Part shown: in pieces, positions 12,064 to 44,421 of the stretch
Numbering within the stretch: the first letter of the stretch is position 1
Layout of the letters: every line of letters starts with the position of its first letter
DNA from: Adineta vaga
Taxonomy: Eukaryota > Animalia > Rotifera
NCBI GenBank assembly: GCA_021613535.1
Contig: CP075492.1
Location: forward strand, 18,600,001 to 18,664,000
DNA: 64,000 bases
Direction of reading: 5' to 3'
The notes under the pieces: model-generated
Told to the model about the DNA's origin: nothing
The model's database searches: none
The model's input: the letters and a program-made list of their open reading frames with translations, nothing else
Made by a program: the position numbers and the translations under genes

Positions 12064-12982
12064 TATTGGTATATTCTTAAATGTGTGGTTCATCTATACG
12101 ATTTCTTATACGTGTTTATCATTTTTATCAAAATAAATATTATCAAAAACCGTAACGACATATTTAGTTTATGTCTTTCAACTATCTGTTCAATTATCAA
12201 AGATCGGATAGGAAATAAATATTTAATTTTCATTAGCATATCAAGATATTTCGTTATAACACCGATGTCTAGTCTTCACCGCACCACATACGAAAGATGA
12301 GAAAATATCATTTTCATACACAATCGATATCGCTCTGTCAACTACAGCACGTAACTTATTCATATCGTAAAATCTATTTTTTATTTTTTTTGCAAATGGC
12401 ACAATGGGCACCTGCTTCAGTCATATACTCTAGAAAGCATTTTATTTCCAGAAAAATTAAATTAATGACAAATTTAAAACAAAAGAAGATTTGTTTCTTT
12501 TCAATTATTCGCTTAAAATTTACATTTTTATTTTTTTTAATTTCCTGTAGTTCATTCATACTATTAATTTCGCTTTCAATAATGAGGTGTTATAGAAACT
12601 CTACAAACAAAGTTTTACGAAAAAAGCCATATCAGCGTCGTTATTCGTAATAATTTTTCTACCGTAATGATTCGCATGAAGAAACACACCTCTAAATAAA
12701 AACGAATATGCCTACGTATTTACAGAATAAAGAGAACAGTATTTTTTTTTCCTACAGTATGATACTACGCATTATTTTTTGGGCATTTTTCTAACCAATT
12801 CGTGTCCTCCATGCCTCACGACGCGTGTAAAATCCTTTCTCTTAATTTTCCCGATTTCTCTCTCCCGTTCTATTATGAATCGTGAGTATATAAGAGAAGA
12901 AATATCAATGTCAAACTACACAACTAACATTTATTCTTACTCAAATACGCTTTCTCAATAACTCATTATTCAAGGATACAAA

Positions 12983-13246
12983 ATGAACACTAACAAAATC
13001 GTATGTTACGTCATTCTTTTGGTGGCACTTCTAGCATTAAGCTGCAAGGCACGACGTATGGAGGAAGAGTCTGACGACATTAGTCTTGAAACTAGCCGCC
13101 GAGACAGCCTCATTAAACTTCTAAAAGAAACCATCGAGAAGCGTGCTTGTCGTCGTCAGGGTCAGGATTGTGAGCGTGCTTTTGAGGCTGCTCCTGGTCG
13201 TGCTTGTTGTGGTGGTCTTGCTTGTCTTGGTCATCGTTGTGAATAA
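12983..13246 (+). CDS. Secreted knottin (ICK) toxin-like peptide precursor
   Basis: Signal peptide, acidic propeptide, KR, then ACRRQGQDCERAFEAAPGRACCGGLACLGHRCE (C-C-CC-C-C). TATA at 12887; 3'-UTR intron 13252-13309. Confidence 0.88.
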   Translation: MNTNKIVCYVILLVALLALSCKARRMEEESDDISLETSRRDSLIKLLKETIEKRACRRQGQDCERAFEAAPGRACCGGLACLGHRCE

Positions 13247-16200
13247 GCCAGGTATGAACTTTGAATGAATTGTTTGATTGATAACTCATGAAACTATTTT
13301 CCTTCGTAGGACATGCAGCATCAAAGCAATGGTACTTCGACAAGCCAACAGCCATCATCAACATAAGCGAACATTATAAATTAGTTAGTTTCTCTACATC
13401 ATATATTTATCTATTTGAGTTTTTTCTTTCACATATTCTTCATTTATTAGCATACTCTTTCCATAGATTCCACGATCTATCTAGGTTTTCATTTTATTGT
13501 ATTTCCATAATTTTTGATTTTAATAAATCATATGCATTAAAAAAGTACACAGCTTGAGTTCTCAGTAACAGAATATGTAATCGTAATATATATTTAACAG
13601 CCAAGGACAATGAATGCATTATTTCTTCATAGTTGTGACATGTTACAATTCTTCCTCTGAGTTATCATCAAAGAGAAACAAGGAACAAATTGAAGGAATT
13701 GCACGATATTCCCATTCAATCTCATTGATCGAAAAATGCATGTAATAAATAAATAAATAAAAAGAGCAGTTGTAATGCGAAGAATCTTCAAATATCAAAA
13801 CACATAAAATCTCAAGGCTAGAGACGTCCAAAACGGACACCTTACGACAGATATCTTTGCTCACAGCTTGTTCGTCAGGAATTTTTTCAAGATGGTTTCA
13901 TATTTGAAATGAATATGTAGACAAAGGACACTTGATTATGCATCGTCAGTCATGGTTATATCTGTTTTGATAATTGGTCTTTATGTATCCCTTTCACTAC
14001 CTTTTTGGTTAGTTTTTTTTGATATATTGATTCTCAACATAAAATGACAGCTTAAGGCTATGCTTGAATAAAGATTATTACGAAGCAATTAATGCATAAT
14101 CATGATTCTGGACATATAACCGGTTAGATTTATATTTATTTGATTAAAAAAAATGAAATGAATAGAAAGAATTTCTTTTGTACGTCACAATGCATTCTCT
14201 AATTTGTTTCAATGTAATAAAAAAAAGTATTTATGTAGTAAAATATTCATATCTTGAATATGACTATTGTAAATATCAAGTGGAAGATTTTCACAAATAA
14301 TCTCTAGTTAGAAAGCACTTTACAAGGAAGTTTGAGCATTATGCATAAATGGTTATGCTAACAACCTGCTACACTTTTAGTATGCCTTAAAATGAAGGCA
14401 ATGTTTAGGAAATTCCTTGAAAACGAACTTTCCAAATATCTTTTAAACTAAGATTCGTGGAGCGTTGACCCTTGTTGACGAAATGTTCATTGTGATAAGA
14501 TCTATCGATTGAACCTATGATATCATGCCATATATTAATTCATAAAATAAATTTCATTATAGAGTAAAAGTTGTTGTTTTCATATGCCATTGATATGCAT
14601 GCTACATTCTTGCACATCCACATGGAGCTGAAATTGTTTACATTCTTATTATTTTTCTTTAAAAAAATGGACATGAAAGGAGCTGTTTATTGCTTTTTTA
14701 TTCATATTATATCATCAGTAATCATTTGAAGATTCTTAATTTCAAACATGAATTTTACAAAATAACGAACAATCAATAGTATTACAGATGGTTTAAAATT
14801 GAATAATGTATCGTTTAAGTCAATAATGATGAGCCGAATTCATTCGATGTACAAATTAGCGGTTCATTTAAATCAGATGCTTCAGAAAGTAGCATTAAAC
14901 TTTGTAGTAGGATAATTGTTATGTTTGCGTTGTTTTATTAAGTTAATTATAGGATTAGATCAATCTGATGCTGAAAGTTGTATGACAAATAAAACTAATT
15001 CTCAAGATAGCATATTAACATTAATCGATTTCTAATTACATCAGTTTATGTCGTTGATCTAGAGGATTTAAATTTTAATTGTAAGGTGATATTGGATCAT
15101 TTAACCGCTGAACAAATTCTTGCAGCATATATTCCAACTTCTTGTTTGCCTAAAATACCCCGAAAAGGGTTGACATCCAGTAACAATTCGAATAAAAAAA
15201 TTTAGTAAATAAATAAATAAAATAAATTCTAATACTTACAAGAATATCATTGTTTGAGGGTGTGCTCATTCATTTTCTTAGCTTTTACCCGATGGAATAA
15301 AACTTTTACTTCTGAAATAATGAGTTTATTTTTCAAAAATCATTTGCACAACGAATCGAAGGACAGAAATACTCAATTGTTCAATATCTTTCTTCATATT
15401 CGAAATCTAGTATGATGGAAAATCACGTATCTACCAGCATGTAATAATTGAACGATCAGTAATTATTACCAGGGACGTGTAATTCGTTTACAAATGTCCA
15501 AACGTGCCTTTAAGATTTTTCTGATATCATACGCAAAACAATATCAAACTAATGAATAATTTTTCATTTATTACCAGAACATCATATATAGATACATATA
15601 TAGAAAAATATTCTGTTATGAAACTTTTTATTATAATAGCCAACAGCATCTTTAATCCTAGTAACAGGAACTGCTTCTTGTAGCAGTGTGATAGGACTAA
15701 CAATTTTATATGATCAAACTCATATATGAAATCTTTTCAATCTAACTTTAAAGTTGATTGAATAAAATTGTTTTTGGTCACATGAAGCTGTTATTATTTA
15801 CATAAGCTCGACATGATTAATGATATCTGAACAATTGTTTTTGGATACGAACTCTTCATTCGAAATGCAATCATCACTTTCTACATTTTCCAGTTAATTT
15901 TAATTATAGTTCAAACGGTGTATGCATACAAATAATGTCCATTAATTCAGATGACTCGTAAACTAGAATAATCGATTGACTTCTAAATCTAAACGTTATT
16001 TACTATATTTTATTATGAACCTTAATAGTGTAGATGTTGTTATAGGTTTTTAATGAAATACATTTATAACTAGCAAATATGCAGACTATTTTATATATAG
16101 AAACATGTCATGTGCAGAAGTTCGAAAGTATTTCAAGTTTATTCGTCACACAATCATAACATGCACTGACGTTTTTTCGAAACGAGTCATTTTATCTTAT

Positions 16201-16810
16201 TACCTCATGCATGACTTTTGTAGTATATCTAATAGACGATAGTTCACTAGCATAATTTAGAATGAAAGTGCATTAATGTAGTTATGATGATTTCATGCAC
16301 CCGTTTATACTAAGTTTCTTACATTCAGTGATAAAATAGCTATTCCATGGACGTCGATTTTCTTATGAAAAAATCTAATATTAAATGATATACAGTTAAT
16401 ATTTAAATTAATGTATGATCATTCTTTACCCGTTAATATTAAAGTTAACGAAAACCGTTTACGTTTATTTTAAATAAACGTAAATGTCCCACCCCTAATT
16501 CAGAGAACCGATAGCTGCCATACACCTAATCGTGATAGCTCGACTGCCCCTCTTTCGTATCTACATCAAACATGCGTCTTAAATCATTTTTTTCTTTCCT
16601 CTACACAAATACAATCTGCTTTCTTGTTCTTAGCGACAACCAACCATTCTTCGGCATACCTGACTGACTTCAGAACATCGAAAAACAGCTCAATCGGAAC
16701 GTTTCACATATTCCCTCTTTATCCATAGTATATATAACAAACAAACTCAATGAAACATCCACAGTTAATTCACATTCAATTATTCAACTGTCTTACAGCG
16801 AAACAAATCG

Positions 16811-17026
16811 ATGGACGGCAAATGGTTGGTAATGATGGTCGTTGCCACAATTCTTGTGACACAAGTAACCACTGCAAGCATCCACAGCGCGGATATGGAC
16901 GATAATGATATGCTAGAAAAACTGGGCTTTGGATTACGTGCCCCGAAATACAAACGTATCTGTTTCTGTATAGGGTGCCAAATTGCAAGTGTCGGCGTAT
17001 GTTGTCTGACAGACTGTGGAAAGTAA
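16811..17026 (+). CDS. Secreted 6-Cys peptide precursor, probably amidated
   Basis: Signal peptide, acidic propeptide, KR, then ICFCIGCQIASVGVCCLTDC-GK. TATA at 16729; 3'-UTR intron 17033-17097. Confidence 0.85.
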   Translation: MDGKWLVMMVVATILVTQVTTASIHSADMDDNDMLEKLGFGLRAPKYKRICFCIGCQIASVGVCCLTDCGK

Positions 17027-18681
17027 ACTTGGGTAAGTGTATTTTAGTTTTGAATCAAACTTTATTTATTTCATTCACTTTCTCTTTTTTCTTTCAGTGA
17101 CAACAAATGTCACAAATCAAATCAATGTCCCAGCACCCTCCAAATTCCAATCCTTCTCCAAGACATTACCACAATCTCGCTTCCCCCATCATTTTGTTAT
17201 CGCTAGCTTTTTCTGTTTAGTTAGTTTTTCTGTTATCATTAAAAGTATATATGGAACACGAAAAATATCACAAAAATATGAAAAAAAACGATTCGAAGGA
17301 TTGCTAATATCAAAAAAAGTTTTTTAACAATTAGTTTTTATATGGATACAAAATCTGATCATGCAGTATTGCCTCTACAGTACTAAGAGAATATACGGTG
17401 TTTACTGTAGGCTTTTTGTCCCATGTGCACGAAGTTCTACACTGAATATTACTGCTTGTTTTTATACAGTTATCAGGCACTTTTCTCTCAATTACTTAGT
17501 TTAGCAAGGTTTTCAAAAGTAATATTCAATAATTCAGTGATCACCTCGGACTGGGGAGGGTGAGCATGAATACCACAACACTAGGATAGTATTTCAAATA
17601 TTTCGATAAAGTATCATAAGGAATCGGTTCGACGAACTACTACCTTCAATTATCTTTGTCGATGTGAAATGCATGAAAAGAAAAACACTACAAAAGCACA
17701 TCAATGTATAGAGGATGGTAAAACTAAAATGTTGATTCGATTTTGATAGTTATTTATTGTGATATTGGTGTGAATATTTAATCAGAATAACAAAATGCGC
17801 CTATTACATTGAAAGTTATCATATATTCAATATATCACAAATGTAGTTTTTGTTCGACGGACTCAGTTTCGGAAAAATATTGTCGTACACATGTTAACTG
17901 TGAAGATAATTATCAAAGAACTACTATTGATATTCTTAGATAATCTTCAACAGATTACCAACTGTACTTTTCATTAATCGTTGAAAATCTGCAGAACATT
18001 TTAGTATACTGATGTGTAAAATTGTTTTTTTGTAGAAAATCCTTTTCTCACAGAGTCAAAATAGGATCTTTCTGAATAGTGACAAAAAGACCTTCTTCTG
18101 TTTCAGTATAACTCTGTTGTTGTTTTTGAATACAGATATTTTCATATCGACCATTTCTTTTTTACAATAATTATTCGAAATATACGTTGTCTTGTTAGAT
18201 TATCAATATATCTGATATATTTAGTACCACAATTATTCATCAAAAATCATAAAAATTATGTTAAGAAATAAAAAAATCTCAATCATTGTTTGATTTCTTT
18301 TGGTGATTTATTCTACGTTTGACATCAAAATGAGCAACATAAACAAAATTATGTTTTCATAAAAGATACATACTGCGTAAAACGAAAGAAAAGTCATCCT
18401 CAAGGTATCTCATTACAGGTAGTATCGATGATTTTGATTATGATTGATGAAAAATATATCATTCATTATAATCTGTCATTTTATTTCATTTCAAATGATA
18501 ATTACCGATCGTATACACAATATTTTGTCCTTGTGAAACAACAAAATCGATTTTCTATGGTAGAGCGATAGATCAGTCATCATTCTTTTTTTCTACGGTA
18601 CGAAAGAAAAAACATACAGTAATATGAAATCTTATAGAAAAATCAATAGAAATAAAAGTGCAAATAAATATCACAATAATA

Positions 18682-19610
18682 ACGGGTGCGGCAGAATAAA
18701 TTGCCGGCTTTTAATAGGCTGCTTTTTTTAAAGTTAGAGTGGATGAGAAAATTTTGTTCTGATGTCGAAAGATAGAGAATTTTGTGTAGATTTTATTGAT
18801 ATGTTCTTTGCAATATTAGCAATTGTCCTTCTCCTGTAGCATCAAAGGCACTGGATACCACAAAAAACATAATTTGCTCAGCATTTTACGGAAATAAAGT
18901 GTTAATTTTCTTTGTCAAATGGCTTTACATATATTATTCAAATGCAGTATTATAAAGTACAGACACGTATCTGTTTTTGAGATCCAATATAAAGTCTGCA
19001 GTAGAAATTTTGTCATCCGAAAACTCGCTTGCAAAAAATGCCTAATTTCCGTTTTTAAGACTTTTTCATGTTGGACAAAAGATCTTAAGCTCATCATAAG
19101 TTCAAAAAAGGAATTCAGTTCTTGTAGTGAAGAGCATTGTGTAGAGCGTGAAATTCTGTATCTGTTGATAAAAAAGGAACAATCTTTGTAAAACCAAGTT
19201 TTGAGAAAATTGGCAACGGAAAGCACGATTCCGTTGACCGAGGGTATTTTCTTGATTTTTTTTGTCTTTTGAAGTAGAAACGAGTAAGCTTTAAAAAATC
19301 AGAACACCACTAGATACACTGAAAAATTCTGCATCGCTTAGGAACAAGAAGAAAATTTTGAACTATAATTAACAGGGCAAAAATTGAAGTTCAAAAGTGT
19401 TTCATTTTCCAGTTGAGCAAATTATGTTTTGGTAGTATCCAGTACTTTTAATATTACAAGAGAAGAACAATTGCTAATATTGCAAAGAACATATCAATAA
19501 AATCTACACAAAATTCTCTATCTTTTGACATCAGAACAAAATTTTCCTACCTAGCCTAACTTTAAAACAGTAGCCTATCAAAAGCCGGCAATTTATTCTG
19601 CCGCACCCGT
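18682..19610. mobile_element. Non-autonomous Tc1/mariner-type element with ~200-bp TIRs and TA TSD
   Basis: TA-ACGGGTGCGGCAGAATAAATTGCCGGCTTTT... matches ...AAAAGCCGGCAATTTATTCTGCCGCACCCGT-TA; the inverted match extends ~200 bp. Confidence 0.9.
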
Positions 19611-19920
19611 TATTTGAACATGAATTCAAATTATTTAATAACACTTGTTTGTTATTTTATTATTTGCAAAGAATATTTCAGATTAAACTATGCATTAATA
19701 TACGTTTTTCTATTTCGTTTTATTTTTATTTGATTCACTTTAAAAATAGTTCATTATTTAAAGTTATATCATTCAGAACAACAACAAAAAGAAAAACGTG
19801 TAAATCTATAAGAAAACTGAGAAATAGATTGCAAAGAAAAATTTTCATTGTTGTTACTGCTGACGAAGCATCTCGATTTGATTCTATTTCTTGTCACACA
19901 ATTACAAATTAGAAGAAAAT

Positions 19921-20668: not shown

Positions 20669-23600
20669 CAAGGGGGAAAAGCGATTTATGATTTGCTTGA
20701 TTTAAATGAGTTAAGGTGATTTACATGATTTAAATGATTTAAAAATGATTTAAATGAGTTAAAGTGATTTAAAACTCATATAAATCGAGCAGCGTATGAA
20801 GACTTTACGGTGACATAAGATTACTATTTCCCTAGAAATATGCATGTATCGTATAAATGTTCGTGCTAATTTTTATCCAGTTAGTCTATCAAGTAATTAT
20901 CGAAATAAGCGATCAATCTGCACATACGAAAACATAGGGATCGAAGGATAAACAAGCCATAAATTTTAGTTTATCTAATGCATGTATTATATATATATAT
21001 ATATATAAGCTCAGGAAAACATTTAGAATGAAATGTTTTTTATTTTGAGTAGCATTTTAGCTAAGGATATATGTATTATTATCGTAAGATGAACTGCATG
21101 TTAGTTGAGTATGTTAATTAGAGAAAGAGAAAAATGAAATGGTCATTCTTTTTTATTATACACATACATTGTATATGTGTAGAAAACAAACGAAATAGAT
21201 AATTCACTTCTTTTGAACTCTAACTGATCGATCAGAAGATAAAGTAGGTTTTGTTTTGGAAAAATACCAGTTTGCAGCTTGTTTATGCATGAATTTCTTC
21301 TGACCATTTACTTCAACAGAAAAAAACGATGCATTTTGATGGCTGTTGATAGAGTCAAAGATGCGCATTCCGCGAAATATTGAATTTGAAACATTAGGAA
21401 GAACATCAGTATTTGATTCATCAATTGATATCGATTCATCGTAGTCATCAAAATTATTATTTCTACTGGACTGTTTCTGGCTCAAATATTCTTCATAATC
21501 ATCATCATCTTCTTGTTTGCTATTATTCAATTGAGAATCTTTCTGGCTAAAAGTTTTACAGTGTGATCTTGTTAACTTTTGAAATGCTAAACGATTCACT
21601 TCTTCGAAAGATATAGTTGTATCATAAGGATTGAGGATCGACAGGTTGCAACTTGAAAGAATTTGACAAGCTTGAAGATAAGCACTAAAAACTGTATCTT
21701 GAATTAATTTTTCTGTGATCGCGGTTGTCATATTCATCACAGGTACTTGATGTTTTTGTTGTGAATGTTTGTGGTGTTTAGGAAAGATAAGGTTGTTATT
21801 ATTAGAATCAGACGAAGATTTAATAGCTTGAAGAGCAGCTAGTTTCTCGACACGTTGAAGAAATTCATCAACGGAAAAGTTCACAATAGATGAGAATGGA
21901 CCAGACATTGATCGTGCCGCTCGGAACGTTTGCTCGCATATTTGTGAATTATATAACGACACATTTAGAGCTTCTTCAGTTATCATTCGCTCTGATACAA
22001 GTACTACAAGGTATGTCAAGCTATGAACATTTAGTTCAAGTGAAAAAAGAGCTGGCATGGTTATGAACAAGCTTGATTTAGAAAAAGATCCCATGGAATT
22101 GGATGGTAACAAATGTGACATTATCTCTTCTAGATCAGCATAAGTTGTAATTTCTAACCATGAAGACCAAAGACGAACTATAAAGACAGCAGTCCACGAA
22201 TAGTATAAGCGATCAATAATAGAAGTGTGTTTTTCGACGAATGCCAAACGAGCAAATCGAATAATCTATCAAATTTAAATAAAAATATTTAAGCACTCCA
22301 TAGAATTTGAGACAGAATCAAAGCTGCAGCCTTAAGATAATTTAGGACTATTCTTATAAAAAAGATTTCGTCATAGTTCTGTTTTTTATAATGAACCAAA
22401 GATTAAATCGAATTAAATTGTTTCTCGTGAGTTATATGAATACAGAAATCGATGAAATATTACTTGTAGATAGGCTTGTAATGCTTCAGAATTTGCAATT
22501 TTTTTAAGAGAAGTAAGAACAGCATCACTTGATATCTTTTCACAAGATGAATAGTTTTGTTTATCGTTTTGAAGGACATCGGATACTGTTAGAGCATGAT
22601 CGAGCTTTGAATATTTGTTAATCAATTCCATAAGATAATCAACACTTGCATATTTTTCTCCTATCAGTAGTGTAATTGCTGAATCCAAAAGACGATTGCG
22701 TAATTTGGTGCATATATGCACACCATCTTGAAAACAGACAAAAAGTTGTTGTGGTTTTAGAAAAAACCATGAACTATTCTAAATATTAGAAAAAAATATC
22801 AAAGAGTTCATAAAAATATAAAAACATGTGTTCTTAAGTCGAATTGAAAACTGGATTCGTTTTTTATTAGTTTAATTTAAAAATTTTTATTTATACGTAA
22901 CAGGGAGATAGGAACAAAATTCAGTCATGAAATACCCATTTCATTTTTAAACGATGCTATTCACTCAAACAACACCACTAGCAGAAGCTATTAACCATTC
23001 AACACCTCTAATATTTCAGACTATTCTGTATATGTTTGATCAAACACATGTGTCTGCTGTTGCGAAGTAGAAGGATTTTCATCAGTAGACAAAATTAGCA
23101 TATAAATAGAGGTGCTTTTCGTCAGATTGACAAAATAGTTCATCGCTATACTTAGTTAAGCTTATCTAATACAAGGAACCATCAAATCAGGGCCATTCAG
23201 TTAGCTTCACGTATTTTCTATTGCACGAGAATGTCTCATTAATGTTCGAAGTTTGTAAAAGTCTAAGATCTTTTTACCACTCAAATAATTACGATATTAT
23301 TTTTTTTCTTAATATTTCGAATAAAACCAGCGTATAGCTTTTAACCTAAACGTTTTAATAGTGTACTGACCTTCAAAAACGAAATTTCGAAATGCTGTGG
23401 ATGTTCTTCTAATTGCAATACTGATTTTGAAAAAAATCCCATTGCATTACGCATCGCATTTAGGCTTCTAGGATCACAATCCGTTGAAAATGCGAGTATC
23501 CTAATATTTCTCTTCAAACACGAATCAAATATGGTGAACCATCTTTTAAGAATGTCTTGAGCGGTATACTTGCTGTTTGTACCGTACGCTGATAGAATAA

Positions 23601-25375
23601 ATGGTGAGGGTGAAGTGTGAGTTGTAGGACACAACGGTTGCACGACATATACGTTGAGAAGAGATGCTTTATCCACCTGATTATACCATATTTCAAGATC
23701 AGCTAATATATCAGTAGAGAAATATCGCGTCGAAGGAAATCCATCTGTAAGTGGAAGCGTGAATCCTGTAAAGCAATTTGAATGAACATCATAATGTATT
23801 TTTTGTACTACGCCAGTACAATCTTCTCCCACGGATGCATATATGCATTTAAACGAATCCATATAATAGTTAAGACGATCATAGTAGAATTCACCTTCAA
23901 TATATTCATTTTTTGAAGATCTAATGATTGTTCGAAGGCTGGTTAAACTAGATATAGATCCTGGAATGTTGATTCGTATGAACTCCTATGCAGTTCTTCC
24001 TCCCAGAATGTAAAGACATGTCGCAAAGTCTTTCACAGATTGTTGATAACGAAAGCAGTTCTTTGAACGTGTTAAATTCGACGTCATATTTGAAACAAAG
24101 TCCAAAACAAATTTAGAGAATAAGTTTGATTCGAGACAATGTATAAGATCAATCAGAAACGGATATTGTTGAATGAGATCAGAAGATATTGTCAGGCACT
24201 TGGTAGTCGATGCAGAATTAGTAGTTGGTAGAAGAGAACGAAGTGTATGAATAAATTTGTTAAGTTTCAAACGAATTCCTGGCATAACGAAGAATGAATA
24301 ATTATCAAATTCATCTTTACATGGACAACCTAATATTTGTTTAAGCGTATCAGTTTGATCAGATTCGAAATAGAGAATGGAAAAGATATCATCGATTTCA
24401 AGTAAATCCATTGAGGTATCAATTAACTGAAATTTAAGTAATTCCACCGCCTCAACACCACAGAATTGTTTAACGATGCTGTAGAATGAATCTCCAGAAA
24501 ATAGAAGAGAATTAGTTGGAAGAGGAAAAGTCATCTGAAATTTGAATTCATCAAAGAAGATATAATAAATAACAAAAGAATCGATCAGGAACGCATGGAA
24601 TATATTTTGAGATGATCACTGCCATATATCACTTATTTGCTTATATTATAATCATTTTAATAGTTGAAAATGTTTAATAGTTGAACCGCAACAAATTAAT
24701 GTATGACGTTATAGAACTCATCATCTTCGAACTTAATCAATCGTTGCTAAATGAAAAGAATTCTTATAAATGATTTATTTCTTCAATTCCTTATTTTCTT
24801 AGACAATATTGTTTGTACGTAGAATACAATAGTTCGTATATAGGATGCAAATGAATAGAAGACGTATTGAATTAGAATAACGATGAGATGAAAATGAACA
24901 TGCGACAACGAATCGAGAAGAAGAGAAAATATTTTCTTTTTATTTCTCCGTCTTACTGATAACAACGAACCGAAAAAAAATTCTCTTGCGTTCTGTCTTA
25001 TTAGATTTCAAGTAGACAGACAAAAGGAAATTATGTATCGAGATATTATACGACTATAGAAAGCACATGTTTGTCATAAAATCAAACCGAAGAAATAGTT
25101 ATTTTCGCTCCGCAATATCACATGAGCATCCAGTAACGTGTACAAGTGTGATATGTTTTAACTGTATTAGTTGCAGTAATAACTTCATAGAGTTTTTGTA
25201 ATGATTTAAATGATTTAGAAGTGATTTAAATGATTTAATTGATTTAGAAGTGATTTAAATGATTCAATTGATTTAAAAGTGATTCAAATGATTTAAGGTG
25301 ATTTAATTGATTTAAAGTGATTTGTTTGATTTAAATTTGATTTCTAACTGATTTAAATCCGCTTTTCCCCCCTTG
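20669..25375 (-). mobile_element. P-superfamily (THAP9/Galileo-like) DNA transposon, ~4.7 kb
   Basis: TIRs CAAGGGGGAAAAGCG / CGCTTTTCCCCCCTTG; subterminal GATTTAAAT arrays at both ends (20683-20775, 25201-25358); internal transposase gene. No clear TSD. Confidence 0.8.
21204..24534 (-). pseudogene. P-element-like transposase; exons 24534-23371, 22778-22464, 22265-21204; nonsense codon at 23986-23988
   Basis: Motifs EDCTGVVQKIHYD...GFTLPL, FSTDCDPR, QDGVHICTKLRNRLL, DKQN and NSQICEQTFRAARS; in-frame GT-AG splicing; GGRTA*EFIRINIPG stop. Upstream exons may exist. Confidence 0.75.
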
Positions 25376-29446: not shown

Positions 29447-30154
29447 TGTTATTTTGTGTAGAAGGGCTTTTTTTAATGATAATAATATTGAAAAGTAAAA
29501 TGTACACATTATTTATAGGTACAATTTCTGTACTTGATACCCATCGACCTTTTCTCTCTAACGATAAAAGAACATCAACTGAAATGTGTACGCTAAGTGA
29601 AATTAGAGAAGAGAATCAAACGATAAGTGGAAAAAAACGATGAAATAAAAAATTAGGATCTATGAATATGTCAGATATTTATTATTCATAGAACATCGTC
29701 TATATTAACCTTCTATATTTTCTTCGTAAATCATAAATTTAAAAATAAAAGAAAGAAAGAAAAAAAAACATCGCAACTCGTATCTAATTTATGTAAATTA
29801 TACTTTGGAATAATAAACAAGCGATGGCATCATTTATGGTTATACCGACAAGTCGATGCATAATAAAAATCGGGAATATTAATATCGTACATCATAACAA
29901 AATATCTTGAGAACGGACGGCGTCAGTTAGATAGAGTTTTGATATTTGTGATGAACATGATCGATTGATTTATTTTCTATAGAAATATCGGTGAGAGTAT
30001 GGATATTCTTTCCTTATGTGTATCGTTTCATAATATTAATAAGCAGAGTGTTATGAGCACCTCGATCATCTCTCTCTTTAGTTCGTATGTAGATAATCTC
30101 TATGTGTTTGTCTGTTCATATAACTAAATAAAGTCCAATGTATAACAACAAAAA

Positions 30155-30203: not shown

Positions 30204-31729
30204 GATCAGCTAGTTGCATTATTACACAAAACATTGTTACGAACATTGATCCTTGAAAATATCTAGTCAACATGTCTCCACAATGTTCTTCATCAGTTAA
30301 TTACTTCCCCATACCTTTCTTCACTCAGCATCACAACTCTCGATCTCATTAAGGATAAAAATCCTTTTTACCAATAAATATTTCATTTACCCTTTTTGAA
30401 ATATTGTAAATTATCATTAGGAGAGGAATATTTCAGTGACATACTGCCATTAACAATCAACGAATAAAGTTCAATCGAACACTTAATCATTGATCATGAG
30501 ATATATATTGATCAATTACCTATATTCTTTTCTTATGTACTTCAGCTTCGTTGTTTATCATTGAATTTATTACGTGGACCTGCAATGATTCCCAATCAGT
30601 CATCTTCATCTGTATTAAAGCATCAAACTCATGTATCTCTCAAACTAACTAATTCTGCGAGATTCAATTATTTGGAACCAGTTTTGACCAATTTTTTCCC
30701 TTTAATTAAAGTTTTAAATATTGCAGCAGCTTCAGATTGCTTGAATGCATACAGATGGGAACATTTAATATCAATTTATTTAGTAAATTTGCGCATTTTA
30801 AATGTTCTATTTCTAGTAAATTTATGCGCAGATATTCAAACAACAACAGTTGAAAACCAATTCAAACTTCTTAGTTCTTCATTTTGGACTAAACGACAAT
30901 GTTTTTTCGATTATTAAACATTAAAACAAACAACATACAATGAATATAGAATCATATATTCTACAAATCCATATAGGTATTTATATTAATAGCATTTCAA
31001 ATATAGATTAAGAATATTTATTTTATTTCTAGAAGAAAAGATTATATAATATGTAATCAATTAAATAACATCAATTATGGAGATCAATATGGAGAAGTTT
31101 TCAACGCAGTTAATCAACTTCACATTGTAAGTGAAAGGGCCATGGAGAAATGTTTGTATTATTTTCCAAATGCAACAAAACTCACGATAGAAGATGATTG
31201 TTCTGCAGCTATTTGTCGATCGATGACAACGAATCTTAATCGTATTTTACGTTTACAACAATTACAAACATTAATTATCAAATGTAATCATCTATCTATT
31301 TTGAAAATGATAGAAATTTTATCTTCTACACCAAATCTTCATACATTAACTCTTCAAACGACGCCTCTTTACAAAGAGAATGAAATAATTATTCAACAAA
31401 ATGAAATATTCCAATCGATATCAAAGATAAATCGTGTTATCAACGTTTCTTTTGTACATCGTTATAGATTAAACAAACTGAAATTACTTGCTAAACTATT
31501 TCCTTGTTTACAACATCTTCAAATTAATATACAGAGGAAAGATATGAAAATAATATTAGAATTTCTACTGAATAATAATAAACAGAATATTTCGGATTTA
31601 GGATTATCATGTTTTACATCATTAAATAAAGTTTATCTCGAACATTTAAATAATCTGATCAAATTGAGAGTATTATCTTCTGACCAGAAAGCAAATCACA
31701 CTGGTAACATCTTGTATTTATGGTGGTAA
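30204..31729 (+). pseudogene. 5'-truncated F-box/LRR-like paralog (copy 1)
   Basis: Aligns by eye to 32224-34159 from 'LTLILENI' onward; several in-frame stops; same intron position after NPYR; ends LYLWW*. Confidence 0.8.
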
Positions 31730-32223
31730 TGATAGTATTTCATCATATATATCATTTCTTTTTAAATATATCTTTGGTGATATGTCAATTTAAATTTAAT
31801 AAATTATGGAATTATTTTCAGTTACACTAATGTCATCTTTTTAAATATTATTATGATTAAATTTGAGAAATAAATCGATTAATATTTCTAATCTTTTACT
31901 TTTGATTTTAATATTCTGTTAGACTCTCAACTATTCGAAAATGATCACACAGATATATTCTTCTCGTGCTCATTGTGTTGTGTAAGAGAAACAAAAGAAA
32001 GTGCACATTTATCAATTAGTTATTTAGATTTTTTCTTACCAGAAATTTCCACCCATTTTTACCCACTTCAATTAGTCATTGTCAAAACTTTTGTAAATAA
32101 CCGGATTTTTCTTCCTTTTTTTCTTCTTTCTTTCGATGTAATAAAGAATCAGGAACGATAAAGCTACGACCACGTTTTCTTTTTTCTTGTTCTCATATAT
32201 TCATTGAGCTCTGACAAATTTCG

Positions 32224-34159
32224 ATGGAAGGAACCAAACGTTGTCGAAGTGATAGTTTTCATGATTTGCATAATACAGACGATCGGAAAAAACAATTAAC
32301 AGCAACACAGAATTCGTGAGTAACATGAATTTGTATTATTCAATAGAAATTCTCCTTTTGTTTGTTAGTGATTCATCAAAAAATATTACACAATTTAAAG
32401 ATCTTGCTAATGAACTCATTTATGAAATATTTGAATATCTCGATTATTATTATGTTTACAAAGGATTTTTCAATCTCAATATTCGACTTCATTCGCTTCT
32501 TATGCAATCAACTCTTCCACTCAAGATCAATCTCTTCACGATGTCTCAAACAACTTTTCATCGTTACAATCAAGATATAATCTTACCTAATACACATCGA
32601 ATTCATACCCTAAGAATTCCAAATCACTTCATGTTTGATCACGATACACTTGCATTATCACAAAAAATATTCCTTCAAACACTTGTCCTTGAAAATATCG
32701 AATCATACTATTTGGATGATCTTCTTGATCAATTCACTTTATTATTACAATTGTCATCACTGACTATCATAGCAATTAACGCGATCGATAATAAATCTTC
32801 TATCTATCAAAAGATATTTAGATTACCTTCAATGAAATACTGTAAAGTATTATTAGGTGATCTATATTCTGAAGATATATTACCATATGCCATAAACGAT
32901 CACAGTCCCATTGAACATTTAATTATCGTCGATAGAATCAATCCGCAACAGTTGAATAGCCTTCTATCATATGTTCCTCATCTTCGTCGTTTGAGAGTAG
33001 ATCTAACGCAACAGGATGGATATAAAGCACCAAATATACCATACTATACTTTGAAGAATTTGACACATGCTTCTCTCAAATTACACCATTATATCACATA
33101 TATTGAGTTACAAGAACTTTTAATCAATAGTTTTCCATTTGTTGAAGTTTTACACATTTCAGCAATGAGTGAAGCTCTGGATGCTAACGAATGGAAACGA
33201 TTAATTTCAATGCATCTACTAGATCTACGCATCTTCGATGTGTTTTTCACATTGATGCTCTCTAGTGATGCTGAAAAGATTGCATTTGACGAGCAAGTTA
33301 ATCTATTTCGATCTTCATTTTGGATTGAACGACAATGGTTTTTCGATTATCGCTTAAGGCAAACAGAATACAGCCAAGGAAGATTTCTTTATTCAATAAA
33401 TCGATACAGGTATTTATCTATGCCAGTTCAATTAGATCAAAAATATCTGTTTTGTGTTCTAGAAGAAAAGATTATGAATTAAGTTATCAGTTGAATGACA
33501 CCATTTGCGGAAATGAAACTCGAGATGTTTTCAAATCAGTTGATCATGTTGAGATTGGAAATGAAAAAGTGATAGAGAAATTTAACGATTATTTTCCAAA
33601 TGCTACAAAACTCACGATAAAAAGAGATTTTTGTGCAGCTTTTTATCGATCGATTCCAACCAATCTTGATCGGATTTTATCTTTACAAAAGTTACAAACT
33701 TTGATTATCAAACGTAATGATTTGTCTCTTTTGAAACTGATTGAACTGTTAACTTATACACCGAATCTTCATCGGTTAACTTTTCGAACAATGCCTTTGT
33801 ACAATGAGAGTAAAATAAGTATTGAACAAAATGAAACATTTCAATCGATATCGAAGACAAATTGCCTCATATATGTCACTTACCAACAGAGTTGTACACT
33901 GGAGGAAGTCGAACTACTTGTTATGTTATTTCCTCGTTTGCAACATCTTGCAATTAATACACAATTGGACAATGTGGAACCAATCTTACAGTTTTTACTG
34001 AAGGAAAACAATGAGAATACTCGTGATTTGGCTTTATTTTCATTGATATACGCAAATAGACCATGGTTTGATCATTTAGATAGGCTATTCATGTTGAAAA
34101 CTTTACCTCAGCAATGTAAAGCAACTTATATGTATCCTCATTTATTTGTATGTTGGTAA
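32224..34159 (+). CDS. F-box/LRR-like protein; exons 32224-32315, 32369-33409, 33463-34159
   Basis: F-box-like 'FKDLANELIYEIFEYLD', LRR-like repeats, FRSSFWIERQWFF and YFPNATKLTI motifs; in-frame GT-AG introns. Confidence 0.85.
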
Positions 34160-34797
34160 TTTGAATTATAGAAATATTTCGTTGAAATAAATGGGAAATG
34201 TTTTAAATTGATTGTTTAATTGTATTATTAACTTCAGCGAGATATCGATCTGCTATTAGGTAAAATAGTTTTCATTGACAAATGAAAAAAAGAATCTTAG
34301 ATCATGTTGTACTATACTGTTGAAAACAAAGTATCACATAACATTTGGACGAAAGCCAAATATTTCGAATCATAAACAAACCCGAAATCAATTTTTGACA
34401 GTTGCATATCGCCAATTTAACATCGATATTTTTGTATGGAATTCTATTCAATGAGTTATTACATACTATAGTGGCGTACAGAGTGTACATATGAATTAGT
34501 CACTTCTTCTATCACAAAAGAAGTATTTACTATTTTGCTTATACCAATCGTTGATCAGGAATAGTTAAAAAAATACAAATATTTATCCTTTCTTTTCATA
34601 TTCATCGTCATTTATGTTCGTGTGTTCTTTACTGAGTGAAATAACGAAAGATAACACAGATATTGTCGAAAATACTATCCGTGTATTTTATTTTTGTACG
34701 AATAATTCTTTATTATTTCAATGGAACAAATCAGACGTCAATGAGATCATAGTTTTGATCACCATGACAATAGTAGAACAATGAAAGATATTTAGAA

Positions 34798-35925
34798 GTG
34801 ATAATAAATAAACGGTGGGTCAATGAAGATAGATTATCATTACCTATGAATAAATATAGTGGAATTGAACATTTAATCTTCGATCATTGGATCAATGTTA
34901 ATCAATTAGATACATGGTTATCATATGTTCCACATCTTCGTTCTTTGTCTGCCAATCTCGTTGGTACACATCATCATGTGTCAATCAATAATTCGCTGGT
35001 CGCATGTTGAATCATTTGAAACATGTTACTCTCACATTCCGATATGGTGTTCAGTTTATTGATTTAGAACAAATGTTTTCGAAATATTTTTCTTTCATTG
35101 AAGTTTTACACATTTCAGAAGATCACGAACAAATGGATGCAAACAATTGGCAACAACTCATACGATTATATTTAACAAAATTACGTATATTTAATGAATT
35201 TCTAACAAAATCAAATGGATATCCTGCTTACATGATACTCTTTTCAACGAATCCATATAGGTAGGTAATACTTTTCAATAAATAAATTAACTATATAGAT
35301 ACACTTTTCTTTTTCTAGAAGAAAAGATTATATATTATACAAACGTTTGGAGAGAATAATTGTTATAGATAATGAACAAATAACGATTTCCTCTGTTAGT
35401 CATATTTATATCAAAAATGGAAAGGAGATGAATAGATGTATGTGTTATTTTCCACGAGTTATAACACTTACTTTCGACTATGGATTTTCAATTAACGCTC
35501 ATCTTTCAATTGCAATGAGTCTTACTCGTATTTTATCGTTAAAACAATTGAAAACTCTAATAATTCAATGTGTTGATTTACCGTTTATTCAAATGATAAA
35601 AATTTCATCGAAGAAATAGAATCATTTCGATTAGTATCAATTACAAATTATATTAGAAATATAATTTTTCAAAGAAAATGTACAATAGAAGAACTTGAAC
35701 TACTTGTTATGCTGTGTCCTCGTTTGCAACATCTTAACATACATGTTACGATTTTTACTCAACAGAAATAATAAGAATACAATTCATTTAGTTTCATTAT
35801 GTTTTTCAAATGCAACAGAATTATATCTTGAATATTTTTATAATTTAGTTTTATCCAGGAAAATATTTTATGAACACAATGTGCTATATGTTAGTTCGAT
35901 TAGACAGTTATTTTTATGGTGGTGA
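34798..35925 (+). pseudogene. Degraded F-box/LRR-like paralog (copy 3)
   Basis: IEHLI, LSYVPHLR, MDANNW, STNPYR|R and FLWW* motifs with frameshifts and deletions. Confidence 0.75.
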
Positions 35926-40523: not shown

Positions 40524-40638
40524 TCGAGGGCGTGGGTGAGATTGATGAATAAATATACTACCCACCCTAATTAGTGCTTTTTCGAAATTTTCTTGAGGGC
40601 GTGGGTATATCTTCTTCACTTACGTCTACACCCATCCT
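40524..40638. repeat. Two adjacent foldback elements (H11 40524-40570, H12 40593-40638)
   Basis: TCGAGGGCGTGGGTG...ACCCACCCTAA and TTGAGGGCGTGGGT...ACACCCATCCT. Confidence 0.8.
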
Positions 40639-41675: not shown

Positions 41676-41737
41676 GAAGGGATGGGTGTGAGTATAAAAC
41701 AAATGTGCCACGTATTCATATCCACACCCACTCTCAA
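41676..41737. repeat. Telomere-like foldback element (H13)
   Basis: GAAGGGATGGGTGTGAG...TCCACACCCACTCTCAA. Confidence 0.8.
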
Positions 41738-42060
41738 TTTTTATTAAAGAGAATATTGAGAAAAAATGATACGAATAACAACTAATGAAGAATGTTCATA
41801 GACGATAACGATGATATTTGATGATCGACGTGTATACCATATTTTCTGAAAAGAAAAGTATTAAATTAATCTAGTGAATAAATATTTGCGAGTCATAGTT
41901 TCAAAGAGAAATGTAATTATAAATGATGGGATAAAATATCGGAAAATGTGAATGAGTCATAGCATTTACTTATTGATTCACATTATTTGGAAGTTTTCAT
42001 CTAAAACCACTCTCAAGGAGCTATCATACACATTTCATAGTGACACAAAACATACCGAAC

Positions 42061-42345
42061 TTAGCCGAGAATGGCAGCACAATTACAACCATAACAAACA
42101 GTATCATAGCAATGATCATAACCACCAGCAAGAGCACAATACACACAACAACCATTAAAACCGCCACAACTAGCACGGGATGTGATTTCAGAGGCTAAAC
42201 TACGGAGTACATATTGTGAATTCATAGCAACATTCATATTGTCACCGTTTCCACCTGCTGGCCATGCCATGGAGTTTGTTAAAAATAATGCTGCGAAAAT
42301 GACAAGAGAAATGATATTGATATTGACATAGACCATTTTCAACAT
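42061..42345 (-). CDS. Secreted 8-Cys peptide precursor
   Basis: Signal peptide, propeptide, R, then ASCGGFNGCCVYCALAGGYDHCYDTVCYGCNCAAILG. TATA near 42410-42422; 3'-UTR intron 42055-42001. Confidence 0.85.
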   Translation of the reverse strand: MLKMVYVNINIISLVIFAALFLTNSMAWPAGGNGDNMNVAMNSQYVLRSLASEITSRASCGGFNGCCVYCALAGGYDHCYDTVCYGCNCAAILG

Positions 42346-42882
42346 TTGATAATATAGAATTCTTTCTCTGAATAACTAGACAATTGATTTTGTACATTGT
42401 TGCTCCCGCATTTATATATATATTGGTCGATCATCATCATCATCATCTGTCATGTCTCTCATGTCTCTATTTGTTTGTGACGTTTTTCGTCGAATGATAC
42501 TGTTGTAAAAAAGTGTTTTTTTTGAAAAGTTCTTTCTCACCGTTTGAAGAAATTATCGGTATGCATTTTAACCAGCGAATTTCTCTATTGAGAATTATTA
42601 TACTAGTTGAAATAGATACAGAAACAAACAGTGCCATATCACTATCAAGGAATTAGACCATTTTTCCTCAAGTAAATAAAAAACAAATCACACGGACTGT
42701 ATTCCTGTGAGTCAAAACGATAGCTGTATTTCTCCGTTCATGGAAAAAATACTTTTCTTCGTCCGTTCCCTTTGGTCGACGTATATATAAAGTGGAAGCA
42801 CAACTTTAGGACCATACCACTTATATAGCTAAGTATATTCATCAATCACTCCTTACTCAAGCGTTGAATAGCAACCAGAATC

Positions 42883-43110
42883 ATGCAAAAGAGCAGTCAA
42901 TTAATTTGTTTCATCGTCGTTGTCTTGGCGTTAATGACTACAAGCTGTATGGCACGCACCGTACACAAACAAACTGAAGTCAATGGTAGTCTTCGTGATT
43001 TAATCAACAAGCGCGGCTATTGTAATAGTACTTGTCTTAATACATGTTGTTTCCTTTTTGAGGCTACTCATGGTGGTTGTGATCAGAGTTGTTATTTTTA
43101 TTGTTGCTAA
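42883..43110 (+). CDS. Secreted 8-Cys peptide precursor with a duplicated CxxxCxxxCC motif
   Basis: Signal peptide, propeptide, KR, then GYCNSTCLNTCCFLFEATHGGCDQSCYFYCC. TATA at 42782; 3'-UTR intron 43120-43192. Confidence 0.87.
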   Translation: MQKSSQLICFIVVVLALMTTSCMARTVHKQTEVNGSLRDLINKRGYCNSTCLNTCCFLFEATHGGCDQSCYFYCC

Positions 43111-44421
43111 TAAGCCAAGGTATGTTGCATCGAGAGAATGTCACTTCGGCCACTTTACAATACTGAATTAAGTTACTATTTTTTCTTTGCAGGAAATATG
43201 GCACTAATACACATTTACACCTAAAATTCAACATTCCCATCATATTGTTACCAACCTCAAACATTGTCGACTATTTTGTTTTCTTTTTTTTCATATTCTC
43301 ACCTGGTTAACTTTCTTCTCTGATACTGTCAACTATTTTTCGAGATAGAAGCAACTTTCTATTTCCAATAAACTCACCACCAACCGATATTGCATGCAAA
43401 TTCAATTTGTAGAGATAAATACAGGCTCAGAAAGCGAAAGTCTGCTGTGTGTGTGTGTGTGTGTGAGCATTAAATAAAATACCTGTATCCTAGAGTGTTA
43501 TCTACATTCAAACATTACATTCTTGTTCGCGTCGATCTATTTTAACATGATTCTCCAAAGATATCTACCCCTCTATTGTAGAGGCAACTACATCATAACA
43601 GTACTCTATTATAGATATCGAAGAAAAACAGATTGCAGGATACTCTGAATAGTAGACTCCAAAAATCTGACGTATATTTTTTCTAAATAATATAAGTTTA
43701 AAAATAATAATGCTAAATGAAGAACTGACGGAATGAAAATTCTAATGATATGATCAATCAGTTCGGCAATAACAAATAGTTCATTGTACTTCAAATAGTA
43801 GATGACGACTTGAGAATATTTTCAAATGACAATCTAAATTCAGTAATTGATAGGATTTATGAGATACTAATAATTCTTTTTCACGAAAAATAATATCATA
43901 TGCTAAATCAATAATATGAAAACGACACTTATAAATACAAATTTTGTCAATTCTAATTTATTTATACTGAATACTGATGTGAAAATTAAAGATGGCTTCT
44001 ATAGAAAAAATAAATAAATGAATACAATAATATTTTCATTGATGTTCCTTTAGCCTCTCATAGGTAAATATCGCTTACGTATACGAAAAAAATGATTTTA
44101 TAGATAAATTTTCTTTCTAATATCTCATTAAATCGTCATTAATTTCTCTACGCAGATCGATACACCCGAATATGAATAATACATACGCCGTTTAGTGCAT
44201 GATTTTTTCAAAAGGTTATTCCGTATGTTTTAAACGAATGTTCTTTTCACTTTTGATATGCATCAGAGCGTTTATTATGTTACTTTTCAAAAGAATTGAC
44301 TCACGCTAAAAATGTAGGAAGAGAACAGAAAGATGCATATATAAACCTGTATTGATACGCTTTTGTATGCATACTTATTCACAACCATTATACAAATCTT
44401 CATAAGATACAAGCAATAACA

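Follow-up and report, generated by a model that had tools for sequence, protein, structure and literature searches.

The systems closest to the locus described here are the conotoxins, whose ORFs carry one or two long introns roughly separating signal, propeptide and mature regions (as set out in PMC3862624), and the CRP-I peptides of mussels, for which PMC4558851 and PMC10138031 report no antimicrobial, antifungal or insecticidal activity. In the CS-alpha-beta defence superfamily, CxxxC and CxC together mark the cysteine-stabilised helix pair (PMC5116183). Hairpin loop peptides (HLPs), small secreted cysteine peptides that occur in Adineta genomes too and have been proposed to be antimicrobial, are characterised in PMC13357843 by a hydrophobic mature chain that starts with GP, runs to about 64 residues and contains six mirror-symmetric cysteines. 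Bdelloids are asexual animals, and the main study consulted on their resistance to fungal parasites (PMC11258130) stresses horizontally acquired biosynthetic genes; the words 'defensin' and 'cysteine' have zero occurrences in its main text.

The present analysis concerned a 64,000-nt stretch of Adineta vaga DNA (the window), for which a preliminary description had proposed one family of four conotoxin-like precursor genes, here called A to D. The genes themselves proved to be real, while their kinship and their assignment to conotoxins had to be revised. The literature consulted yielded no description of these rotifer peptide genes.

Four precursor genes spliced just past the stop codon

All four ORFs were borne out by the sequence, uninterrupted in the DNA and in transcript-like contigs, each with TATATAA upstream at about the proposed 70-100 bp and each with its own cysteine spacing (Table 1). 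Hydropathy and the KR motif served to predict signal and cleavage sites, in place of a dedicated predictor. Among the 112 ATG ORFs of 45-130 residues at positions 1-60400 of the window, exactly A, B, C and D combined a hydrophobic N-terminus with at least six cysteines in the last 40 residues, and all four had the TATA box; such ORFs numbered 0.02 per window in 100 Markov-4 simulations, in which no ORF had the four features together. Six of the 128 ORFs of at least 45 residues, A to D included, have a donor-like 5-mer at 4-10 nt past the stop. The combined features of these genes lie far above chance expectation. Genes C and D stand head-to-head, with 538 nt between their ATGs, and their predicted mature peptides are rich in Tyr, Gly and His. 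Genes for 7TM receptors are also present in the window.

Table 1. Parts of genes A to D, in positions of the window
Feature	Position	Strand	Evidence or remark
Gene A TATA box (TATATAA)	12887..12893	+	sequence; 96 nt ahead of ATG
Gene A ORF, single exon, 87 aa: predicted signal ~1-23, pro, KR site, mature	12983..13246	+	
Gene A predicted mature peptide, 33 aa, Cx6Cx11CCx4Cx4C, net +1, predicted inhibitor cystine knot	13145..13243	+	
Gene A GT-AG intron, 58 nt, 5 nt past stop	13252..13309	+	joint in X13, X14, X16
Gene B TATA box	16731..16737	+	sequence; 80 nt ahead of ATG
Gene B ORF, single exon, 71 aa	16811..17026	+	sequence
Gene B predicted mature peptide, 20 aa, CxCx2Cx7CCx3C, then Gly-Lys (likely amidation signal)	16958-17017	+	
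Gene B GT-AG intron, 65 nt, 6 nt past stop	17033..17097	+	joints in X14, X16
Gene C TATA box	42412..42418	-	sequence; 73 nt ahead of ATG
Gene C ORF, single exon, 94 aa; predicted monobasic R site	42061..42345	-	
Gene C predicted mature peptide, 37 aa, Cx5CCx2Cx8Cx4Cx2CxC, net -2	42174-42064	-	
Gene C GT-AG intron, 210 nt, 5 nt past stop	41846..42055	-	joint 41845>42056 in X13, X14
Gene D TATA box	42784..42790	+	sequence; 99 nt ahead of ATG
Gene D ORF, single exon, 75 aa; KR site	42883..43110	+	
Gene D predicted mature peptide, 31 aa, Cx3Cx3CCx9Cx3Cx3CC, net -2	43015-43107	+	
Gene D GT-AG intron, 73 nt, 9 nt past first stop	43120..43192	+	joint in X13 only

Genes A, B, C and D are transcribed and spliced just past their stop codons. 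All four introns were skipped in contigs of the transcript-like runs X13, X14 and X16, which come from three studies and whose RNA status was guessed automatically or is unrecorded. The joint of gene A was found in all three runs, those of B and C in two of the three each, and that of D in one, with 39 nt on its short side; a variant-sequence form of the B joint, using the same donor, was in all three. The preliminary description had named absent transcripts or unspliced UTR introns as grounds for abandoning the proposal; joints were found, as were poly(A) loose ends in X13 at 13557 (A), near 17341 (B) and at 43400 (D), and DNA run X1 contained none of the splice joints. AATAAA occurs at 13522 (A), 41745 (C) and 43367 (D). 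Contigs begin at 12953 for A (X14) and at 42377 (X13) or 42376 (X14) for C, although contigs cannot show true starts. The proposed placement of the introns, 5-9 nt past the stop, was correct for all four, and the proposed length of 55-73 nt holds for A, B and D but not for C, for which 55 nt had been implied; because the C intron is 210 nt, the spliced lengths range from 58 to 210 nt. Nonsense-mediated decay follows a 50-nt rule, and an intron so close behind the stop would allow transcripts of an intronless ORF to undergo splicing yet escape this decay. The TATA box, short signal ORF and donor 5-9 nt past the stop offer a signature for genome-wide searches.

Kinship and the T3 codon switch

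Sequence comparison ties A to D through the signal, the promoter and the splice region. In shuffle tests that kept signal sub-regions, cleavage site and cysteine positions, the two were alike over the whole precursor (p 0.001) and over the signal (p 0.0002), in agreement with the shared signal proposed earlier, while the remaining five of the six pairs gave p>0.12. Likewise, TAAGCCA(A)GGTATG occurs within the window at A and D only. The 5'-UTR motif TTACTCAA, also advanced as common to both, has eight occurrences in the window and carries little information alone. The mature regions had been called unalignable, which is true of the proteins but not quite of the DNA, where 19 of 22 nt are identical around the FEAxxG loop (p 0.059).

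Gene C joins this pair weakly, through a distant metagenome precursor, P0010, with a C-like prepro region and an unrelated mature part (BLASTP E 4e-13; signal z 4.1, propeptide z 9.6, mature p 0.41). Combined into a profile, four C-clan prepro regions picked out D (p 0.002) as well as A (p 0.019) and left B aside (p 0.56), the C-D and C-A links depending on this one singleton protein and on modest p values. Gene B had no sequence link to A, C or D in either the pairwise shuffles or the profile, and is probably a separate lineage with a common gene plan. The single family first proposed is thereby reduced to three genes, A, C and D, that look distantly related; a single ancestral gene would have given rise to them through repeated remodelling of its mature module.

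In A, C and D, third codon positions turn almost pure T within one or two codons of the predicted cleavage site. T-ending codons make up 28 of the 28 T-possible codons in mature A, 25 of 29 in mature D, and 31 of all 37 codons in mature C; the predicted mature region of B has no such switch. This T3 switch is a new observation, a sharp, testable oddity with no exon border at its place and with a bearing on the turnover of cysteine frameworks; if recurrent across paralogues, it would suggest that selection or mutation acts there in a way not yet described.

As far as kinship alone is concerned, the four genes might be unrelated, or A and D the sole related pair, with the common plan a convergence on the needs of short, strongly expressed secreted-peptide genes. 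Only one pair in six is significant by direct comparison, the exonic 3' UTRs of the four genes are no more alike than random pieces of the window (p 0.07-0.34), and neither intron lengths nor cysteine patterns are uniform. Convergence is nevertheless somewhat unlikely, given that every one of the four introns sits 5-9 nt past the stop, that the C-clan profile separates D and A from B, and that the T3 switch follows the same division. A bolder reading, rather unlikely as a whole, is that one compact chassis (TATA box, signal, propeptide, cleavage Arg, post-stop intron) carries swappable mature modules of different folds (knottin, defensin-like and others), near-pure NNT from the cleavage site onward, the NNT being a trace of dedicated making, importing or diversifying of modules inside a single exon. 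These genes would then belong to an undescribed bdelloid effector system, by which an asexual animal could keep replacing its defence peptides with no need of exon shuffling.

Distribution, variation and predicted function

Searches of 5.8 billion clusters and 1.84 billion representatives found no homologue of A or B, none of any of the four past close relatives, and no conotoxin among the homologues; the genes are not conserved neuropeptides with a wide spread of homologues, a case close to the other ground for doubt named beforehand. Those of C (P0005, P0007 with an Adineta ricciae label, P0009 and P0010) are all in Adineta-labelled or unnamed records, and metagenome locus L001 contains a copy of D at 92% identity, which keeps the splice donor but has an intron of 116 nt. 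Gene predictors were said to miss such genes easily: the exact B protein (a one-member cluster) and the C protein are in NCBI nr, both with no name displayed, but a collection of 15 billion proteins contains neither A nor D as an exact protein.

The preliminary description expected hypervariable mature parts and proposed comparing signal with mature regions. Mature C and D vary no more than their prepro regions among alleles and species: C differs from P0005 at 2/27 in the signal, at 3/30 in the propeptide and at 2/37 in the mature part, and from P0007 at 4/30 and 4/37 in the latter two; D differs from L001 by one mature change against four in signal and propeptide. This is not an arms-race pattern, because the mature regions are no more variable than the prepro. 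A superfamily pattern of kept signal and different mature region is seen for A against D and for C against P0010, but not among alleles and close copies. Among the matches listed (40 of 123 and 40 of 107), B alleles show three mature changes, and 13 of 17 coding differences between alleles are non-synonymous, which fits neutrality (0.79) and exceeds omega 0.2 (p 0.006).

A knottin (inhibitor cystine knot) is the predicted fold of the mature gene A peptide, which shows the C-C-CC-C-C array; in knottins the disulfides connect I-IV, II-V and III-VI. Of its five single-sequence models, the best reached pLDDT 91.5 and the other four 50-66. Small disulfide-rich peptides, presumably knottins, filled the 21 VIA rows at Z>=2 and most of the 13 Foldseek rows, with titles naming peptides from venoms, inhibitors of enzymes and antimicrobial peptides of plants. 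All of these are weak matches, with E>=0.83, Z<=3.4 and an rmsd of 1.0-3.0 over 24-31 residues. The C model (pLDDT 68) has a helix at 6-16 and no beta-hairpin, and matched no structure at Z>=2. Neither Pfam nor PDB gave a sequence match for mature A, B, C, D or for P0010, that of D to radish defensin Rs-AFP being non-significant (E 3). Gene B resembles hepcidin, but was rejected as one, with six cysteines against an eight-cysteine domain and no Pfam or PDB match at E<=10.

On balance, opinion here leans slightly towards A to D being lineage-restricted secreted defence peptides that would act against microbes or fungal parasites. The signal would direct the precursors into the ER, a convertase would cut at KR or R, and disulfide-bonded peptides of 20-37 residues would be secreted and released, that of B amidated via Gly-Lys and that of A in a knottin fold, as extracellular defence effectors. 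Fungal parasites do attack bdelloids (PMC11258130), and the narrow range of the genes, the excess of non-synonymous differences over omega 0.2, the knottin-like A model and the CxxxC + CxC of C and P0010 all suit such a role. It fits less well that the mature peptides lack family matches, that the C model is helical and matched nothing, and that variation is unlike that of an arms race. Most antimicrobial peptides are cationic, whereas the predicted charges here are neutral to anionic (+1, 0, -2 and -2 for A to D), and the closest analogue, mussel CRP-I, was inactive in assays (PMC4558851; PMC10138031). Ion-channel or receptor toxins with which protists, nematodes and other meiofauna would be deterred as predators or competitors, in the manner of conotoxins or spider knottins, would account for the array of A, for its predicted fold, to which venom peptides make up most of the nearest structures, and for the likely amide of B; neurotoxins are also most of the Swiss-Prot peptides with this array (PMC4558851). 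Yet the fold matches are all weak, antimicrobial peptides and enzyme inhibitors are among them, a common fold is no proof of function, and B, C and D have no toxin match. Bdelloids are microphagous and are not known to have a venom apparatus, and a toxin role is quite improbable.

Hormones, neuropeptides or pheromone-like cues, as endogenous signals to the expanded GPCRs of the rotifer itself, seem quite unlikely as well: neuropeptides share the basic cleavage sites and the Gly-Lys amide signal, the window contains 7TM receptor genes, mature C is well kept in Adineta-like records (4/37 changes to P0007) and conotoxin-like precursors of non-venomous spiralians can be signalling peptides (as stated in 10.1101/2022.08.05.502922), but homologues end at close relatives, unrelated mature domains share one prepro (C against P0010) and allele differences are mostly non-synonymous. 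Very improbable are structural, adhesive, mucus or metal-binding peptides with no enemy target (foot-gland cement, integument, desiccation-related), to which the neutral or anionic, Tyr/Gly/His-rich C and D peptides and the short TATA-driven genes would correspond; repeats are absent, the four frameworks are distinct, and a propeptide with convertase site and a compact predicted knottin are more in keeping with a diffusible ligand than with a subunit of a polymer. If the defence reading is right, native ribosomal disulfide peptides would add a second arm to bdelloid defence. If the peptides are inert, as mussel CRP-I largely was according to its published assays, interest would shift to gene structure and codon evolution.

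Comparison with known peptide systems

Membership of the HLPs as characterised was rejected, as none of A to D has their mirror-symmetric cysteines or a hydrophobic chain starting with GP. Of the CS-alpha-beta motifs (PMC5116183), CxxxC + CxC, a low-information pattern, is found in C and P0010, and CxxxC + GxC in D; unlike these defensins, C and D are non-cationic and lack significant Pfam or PDB matches, the C model has no hairpin, and D has no terminal CxC.

Conotoxin superfamily membership was also rejected. The best Pfam match, Chi-conotoxin, scored 13.4 bits against a cut-off of 27 (E 0.095) and covered signal and propeptide only. The conotoxin-like assignment fails on the absence of a family match, of ORF introns and of allele-level mature hypervariability, whereas conotoxins are cone-snail venom-gland products with hypervariable mature exons and ORFs split by one or two long introns (PMC3862624). 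The likenesses are a signal-pro-mature plan with a cysteine-rich C-terminal peptide after a predicted basic cleavage site, a kept signal/propeptide with a different mature domain (A against D, C against P0010), the framework VI/VII array of gene A and the likely amidation of gene B.

The MgCRP-I genes of Mytilus differ in several respects as they have been described: one invariant six-cysteine array as opposed to four arrays here, two introns inside the ORF (PMC4558851) as opposed to an intronless ORF with a post-stop intron, basic rather than neutral or acidic mature peptides, dozens of clustered paralogues where the 64 kb here have four genes, and a mature exon under positive selection. Membership was rejected, since the searches found no homologous prepro, the array is in A only and ORF introns are lacking. 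Even so, MgCRP-I comes from a non-venomous spiralian, is lineage-restricted and has the same order of signal, propeptide, dibasic site and mature peptide (PMC4558851; PMC10138031), and gene A shares with it the C-C-CC-C-C array and a likely knottin fold.

Expressed precursor genes and their surroundings

Four short genes, A to D, encode Cys-rich peptide precursors and lie where the preliminary description placed them, each with a TATATAA motif 73-99 nt upstream (see table). Window positions 1-60400 contain 112 ORFs of 45-130 aa that start with ATG, and of these only A to D combined a hydrophobic N-terminus with at least six C-terminal Cys residues, an arrangement that arose 0.02 times per simulated window. 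The ORF scan admitted introns of 45-90 nt only, so the gene C intron lay outside its range. No fifth member was found when the window was searched by tblastn with the four proteins.

An intron begins 5, 6, 5 and 9 nt past the stop codons of A, B, C and D, respectively, and is spliced out in transcript-like contigs. These came from three runs of three studies (X13, X14 and X16), none of them recorded as RNA: X13 and X16 are guessed to be RNA and the type of X14 is unrecorded. The 58-nt intron of A was skipped in all three runs, the 65-nt intron of B in two (in a variant-sequence form in three), the 210-nt intron of C in two, and the 73-nt intron of D in one; the DNA run X1 contained no splice joint of any of them. 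Transcripts and UTR splicing, the lack of which the preliminary description had named as contrary evidence, were thus seen for all four genes, and its sole factual error was the implied intron length of 55 nt for C. Loose poly(A) ends were found in X13 for A and D, 28-35 nt past AATAAA, and one also for B. NCBI nr already contains the B and C proteins, listed without a name; the exact A and D proteins were absent from the protein collection searched. Titles and abstract openings of the rotifer peptide literature, among the matches listed, gave no description of these genes; subscription journals or supplements may contain one. A to D are a real, expressed set of rotifer Cys-rich peptide precursors, apparently undescribed, with a candidate function.

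Features of the window, with predicted mature peptides of genes A to D
Feature	Position	Strand	Details
Gene A	12983-13246	+	33 aa, Cx6Cx11CCx4Cx4C, net charge +1, cut after KR
Gene B	16811-17026	+	20 aa, CxCx2Cx7CCx3C then Gly-Lys, net charge 0, cut after KR
Gene C	42345-42061	-	37 aa, Cx5CCx2Cx8Cx4Cx2CxC, net charge -2, cut after single R
Gene D	42883-43110	+	31 aa, Cx3Cx3CCx9Cx3Cx3CC, net charge -2, cut after KR
LDLa-EGF-7TM gene	2825-7645	+	1606-aa intronless ORF; LDLa repeats, EGF domains, rhodopsin-type 7TM
ADP-ribosyltransferase/TPR	8646-11510	+	ADP-ribosyltransferase domain then TPR repeats, across two ORFs
MITE-like element	18678-19614		~190-nt terminal inverted repeats, 560-nt interior
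Long open frames	21207-24615; 30468-35619	-; +	four tested, no Pfam match at E<=0.05; by eye, presumably a degenerate transposon-like stretch and tandem F-box-like genes
Ice-binding-like gene	28766-29512	-	secreted; PF11999, E 4e-42
Gly/Tyr-rich protein gene	about 44420-44727	+	TATA-led; small, His run and GYGG repeats; probably one intron; signal peptide not evident
Six-Cys repeat gene	about 47605-48153	+	multi-exon; signal-like N-terminus, three 35-aa six-Cys repeats; no Pfam match above cut-off
Tandem array	60463-64000		105-bp unit, homogeneous, 33.7 copies, 97% matches, reaching window end

The window is AT-rich eukaryotic DNA (GC 0.24-0.34), and its other genes (LDLa-EGF-7TM, ADP-ribosyltransferase/TPR, NHL, Kelch and ice-binding) form a mix typical of bdelloid rotifers; the ice-binding family (PF11999) is often horizontally acquired. 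Around gene A (12650-16144), X1 provided one identical contig and no second version at 85% likeness, whereas about three versions cover gene B; this might indicate presence/absence variation of A, with the caveat that contig depth is no copy number. Stretches between A and B uncovered in the three transcript-like runs were given no weight. At 43085 and 43274, X1 contigs match the 3' part of D and then run into unrelated sequence (loose ends of at least 255 letters), one break falling within the mature coding region, which would reflect either a partial copy or an insertion allele. Low-depth X13 contigs cover 14682-15150 and 16464-16543, and one of them, linking 15150 with 16464 through a joint whose ends are non-canonical, is possibly repeat-derived or chimeric.

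Kinship and variation among copies

The four genes had been presented as one conotoxin-like family. When pairs were compared with shuffles preserving signal sub-regions, cleavage site and Cys positions, A and D were significantly alike (p 0.001; signal alone p 0.0002), and none of the other five of the six pairs was. A and D can also be aligned across promoter and signal DNA, and both carry TAAGCCA(A)GGTATG, which the rest of the window lacks. In the mature region, 19 of the 22 nt surrounding FEAxxG are the same in both genes (p 0.059). The exonic 3' UTRs gave no support for kinship. A query with gene C against 1.84 billion representatives returned three proteins, one of them new (P0010, a JGI singleton, E 7e-4). 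Its signal and pro regions resemble those of C (z 4.1 and 9.6), while the likeness of its 50-aa mature region, spaced Cx9Cx7Cx3Cx4Cx4Cx9CxC, to that of C is within the shuffle range (p 0.41). A profile from four prepro (signal plus propeptide) regions of the C clan recognized D (p 0.002) and A (p 0.019) and not B (p 0.56). The pair test, P0010 and the profile together suggest that A, C and D likely belong to one deep clan, and that B is likely separate, with the gene plan alone in common.

The nearest named homologue of C, P0007, carries an Adineta ricciae label (88% over 69 aa), which makes an Adineta the likely host. Searches requiring shared 5-mers and similar length returned two candidates for A, none at E<=0.01, and for B only itself. 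A search of the ESM Atlas with the stored homologues gave sub-threshold leads (P0006 0.87, P0007 0.76). P0006, a 121-aa model also labelled A. ricciae, matches the C pro region and then runs out of frame, and likely represents either a faulty gene model of C or a broken copy. Horizontal origin left no sign in searches that are weak tests: prokaryote genomes with the C/D alignment (14 pattern matches, 0 confirmed), viral contigs with gene A (41 matches, 0 confirmed) and viral fold matches for A (E>=5.6).

The hypervariable mature region expected of a conotoxin-style family was not seen among close copies of C and D. A metagenomic copy of D (locus L001, 92%) carries a single change in its mature part and retains the promoter, the ORF, the donor and the poly(A) signal. 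Between C and its close homologues, 2-4 of the 37 mature residues and 3-4 of the 30 in the pro region differ. A rough count of coding differences in the read tables, among the rows listed (40 of 123 and 40 of 107), gave 13 non-synonymous of 17, which fits neutrality and exceeds an omega of 0.2; gene B showed three coding differences in its mature part, among the rows listed.

A switch to third-position T near the predicted mature start

Third codon positions of A, C and D turn to T close to the predicted start of the mature peptide. Among codons able to end in T, the mature regions had T in 28/28 (A), 31/37 (C) and 25/29 (D), against 14/41, 20/48 and 13/34 in the prepro regions (Fisher p<1e-5, 1e-4 and 1e-4), and more than the 15.5, 24.3 and 20.1 expected from amino acids and window codon use. 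Unconstrained change-points fell at codons 54, 57 and 46 (permutation p 0.0002, 0.0016 and 0.001), close to the mature starts predicted for codons 55, 58 and 45; gene B had none (p 0.62). Of the 45 four-fold sites in the three mature regions, 38 had T and 1 had A; of the 1274 in nine reference ORFs, 520 had T and 544 had A. A run of 28/28 occurred in 0 of 5461 overlapping 28-codon windows from 28 long open frames; one window reached 25. Residues unable to end in T were also rare (0/37 in C, 1/50 in P0010). The switch was spotted post hoc and recurs in three genes, sorting A, C and D together as the prepro profile does.

It is a sharp sequence feature that the causes tested do not explain. An active retroelement-type diversifier is unlikely, because the window held no template differing at adenines only (the best non-self matches were A-rich runs) and the alleles show ordinary low variation. 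Recent slippage finds no support, since adjacent codons were no more similar than shuffled ones (pooled p 0.55-0.79) and in-frame self-repeats were not in excess. The mRNA 5' exons of A, C and D were not more stably folded than shuffled sequences (z about +1). Non-Cys, non-Gly codons still ended in T in 17/17, 19/22 and 16/18 cases (A, C, D), and the neighbouring six-Cys repeat gene has no such bias (48/95). Candidate causes would be selection on decoding accuracy or speed restricted to the mature part, a U/G-rich RNA element beside the post-stop donor, or modules derived from NNT-rich DNA. Slowed decoding, for instance, would leave more time for the signal to be recognised on so short a chain.

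Predicted peptides, function and known systems

Signals and cleavage sites were predicted from hydropathy and motif. None of the four mature peptides had a Pfam match at E<=10 or a PDB sequence match, save D with two radish defensins (E 3 and 6). One of five single-sequence models of mature A reached pLDDT 91.5, and its nearest structures, with weak scores, were small disulfide-rich peptides: spider, scorpion and cone-snail peptides, sponge asteropsins, plant amylase inhibitors and antimicrobial peptides. The model of mature C (pLDDT 68) was helical and matched no structure. Suspected likenesses of B to hepcidin and of P0010 to drosomycin and plant defensins were not confirmed by Pfam and PDB searches.

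A strong TATA promoter would drive a short mRNA with a single intron just past the stop, spliced yet spared nonsense-mediated decay; under the 50-nt rule, an intron close behind the stop does not trigger that decay. ER entry, oxidative folding and convertase cleavage would then release a compact peptide. As a candidate role we somewhat favour defence, with microbes or fungal parasites as the targets, because the taxonomic range is narrow, one prepro accompanies different folds, the Cys patterns are knottin- or defensin-like, and the hosts face fungal parasites, as PMC11258130 describes. A term search for pathogen-challenge expression in 14 of the 16 supplementary files of that study gave no match. 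Counting against defence, the peptides are non-cationic, C and D carry no arms-race signal, and the mussel CRP-I analogue is inert according to PMC4558851 and PMC10138031. Toxins aimed at predators and endogenous signals are both improbable, to a similar degree, and structural or metal-binding roles slightly more so.

Big defensins are absent from rotifer genomes, according to PMC7203481. Genes A to D fall outside the conotoxin and CRP-I superfamilies, since signal homology, gene structure and hypervariability all fail; what they have in common with conotoxins (PMC3862624) and mussel CRP-I (PMC4558851; PMC10138031) is the precursor plan.
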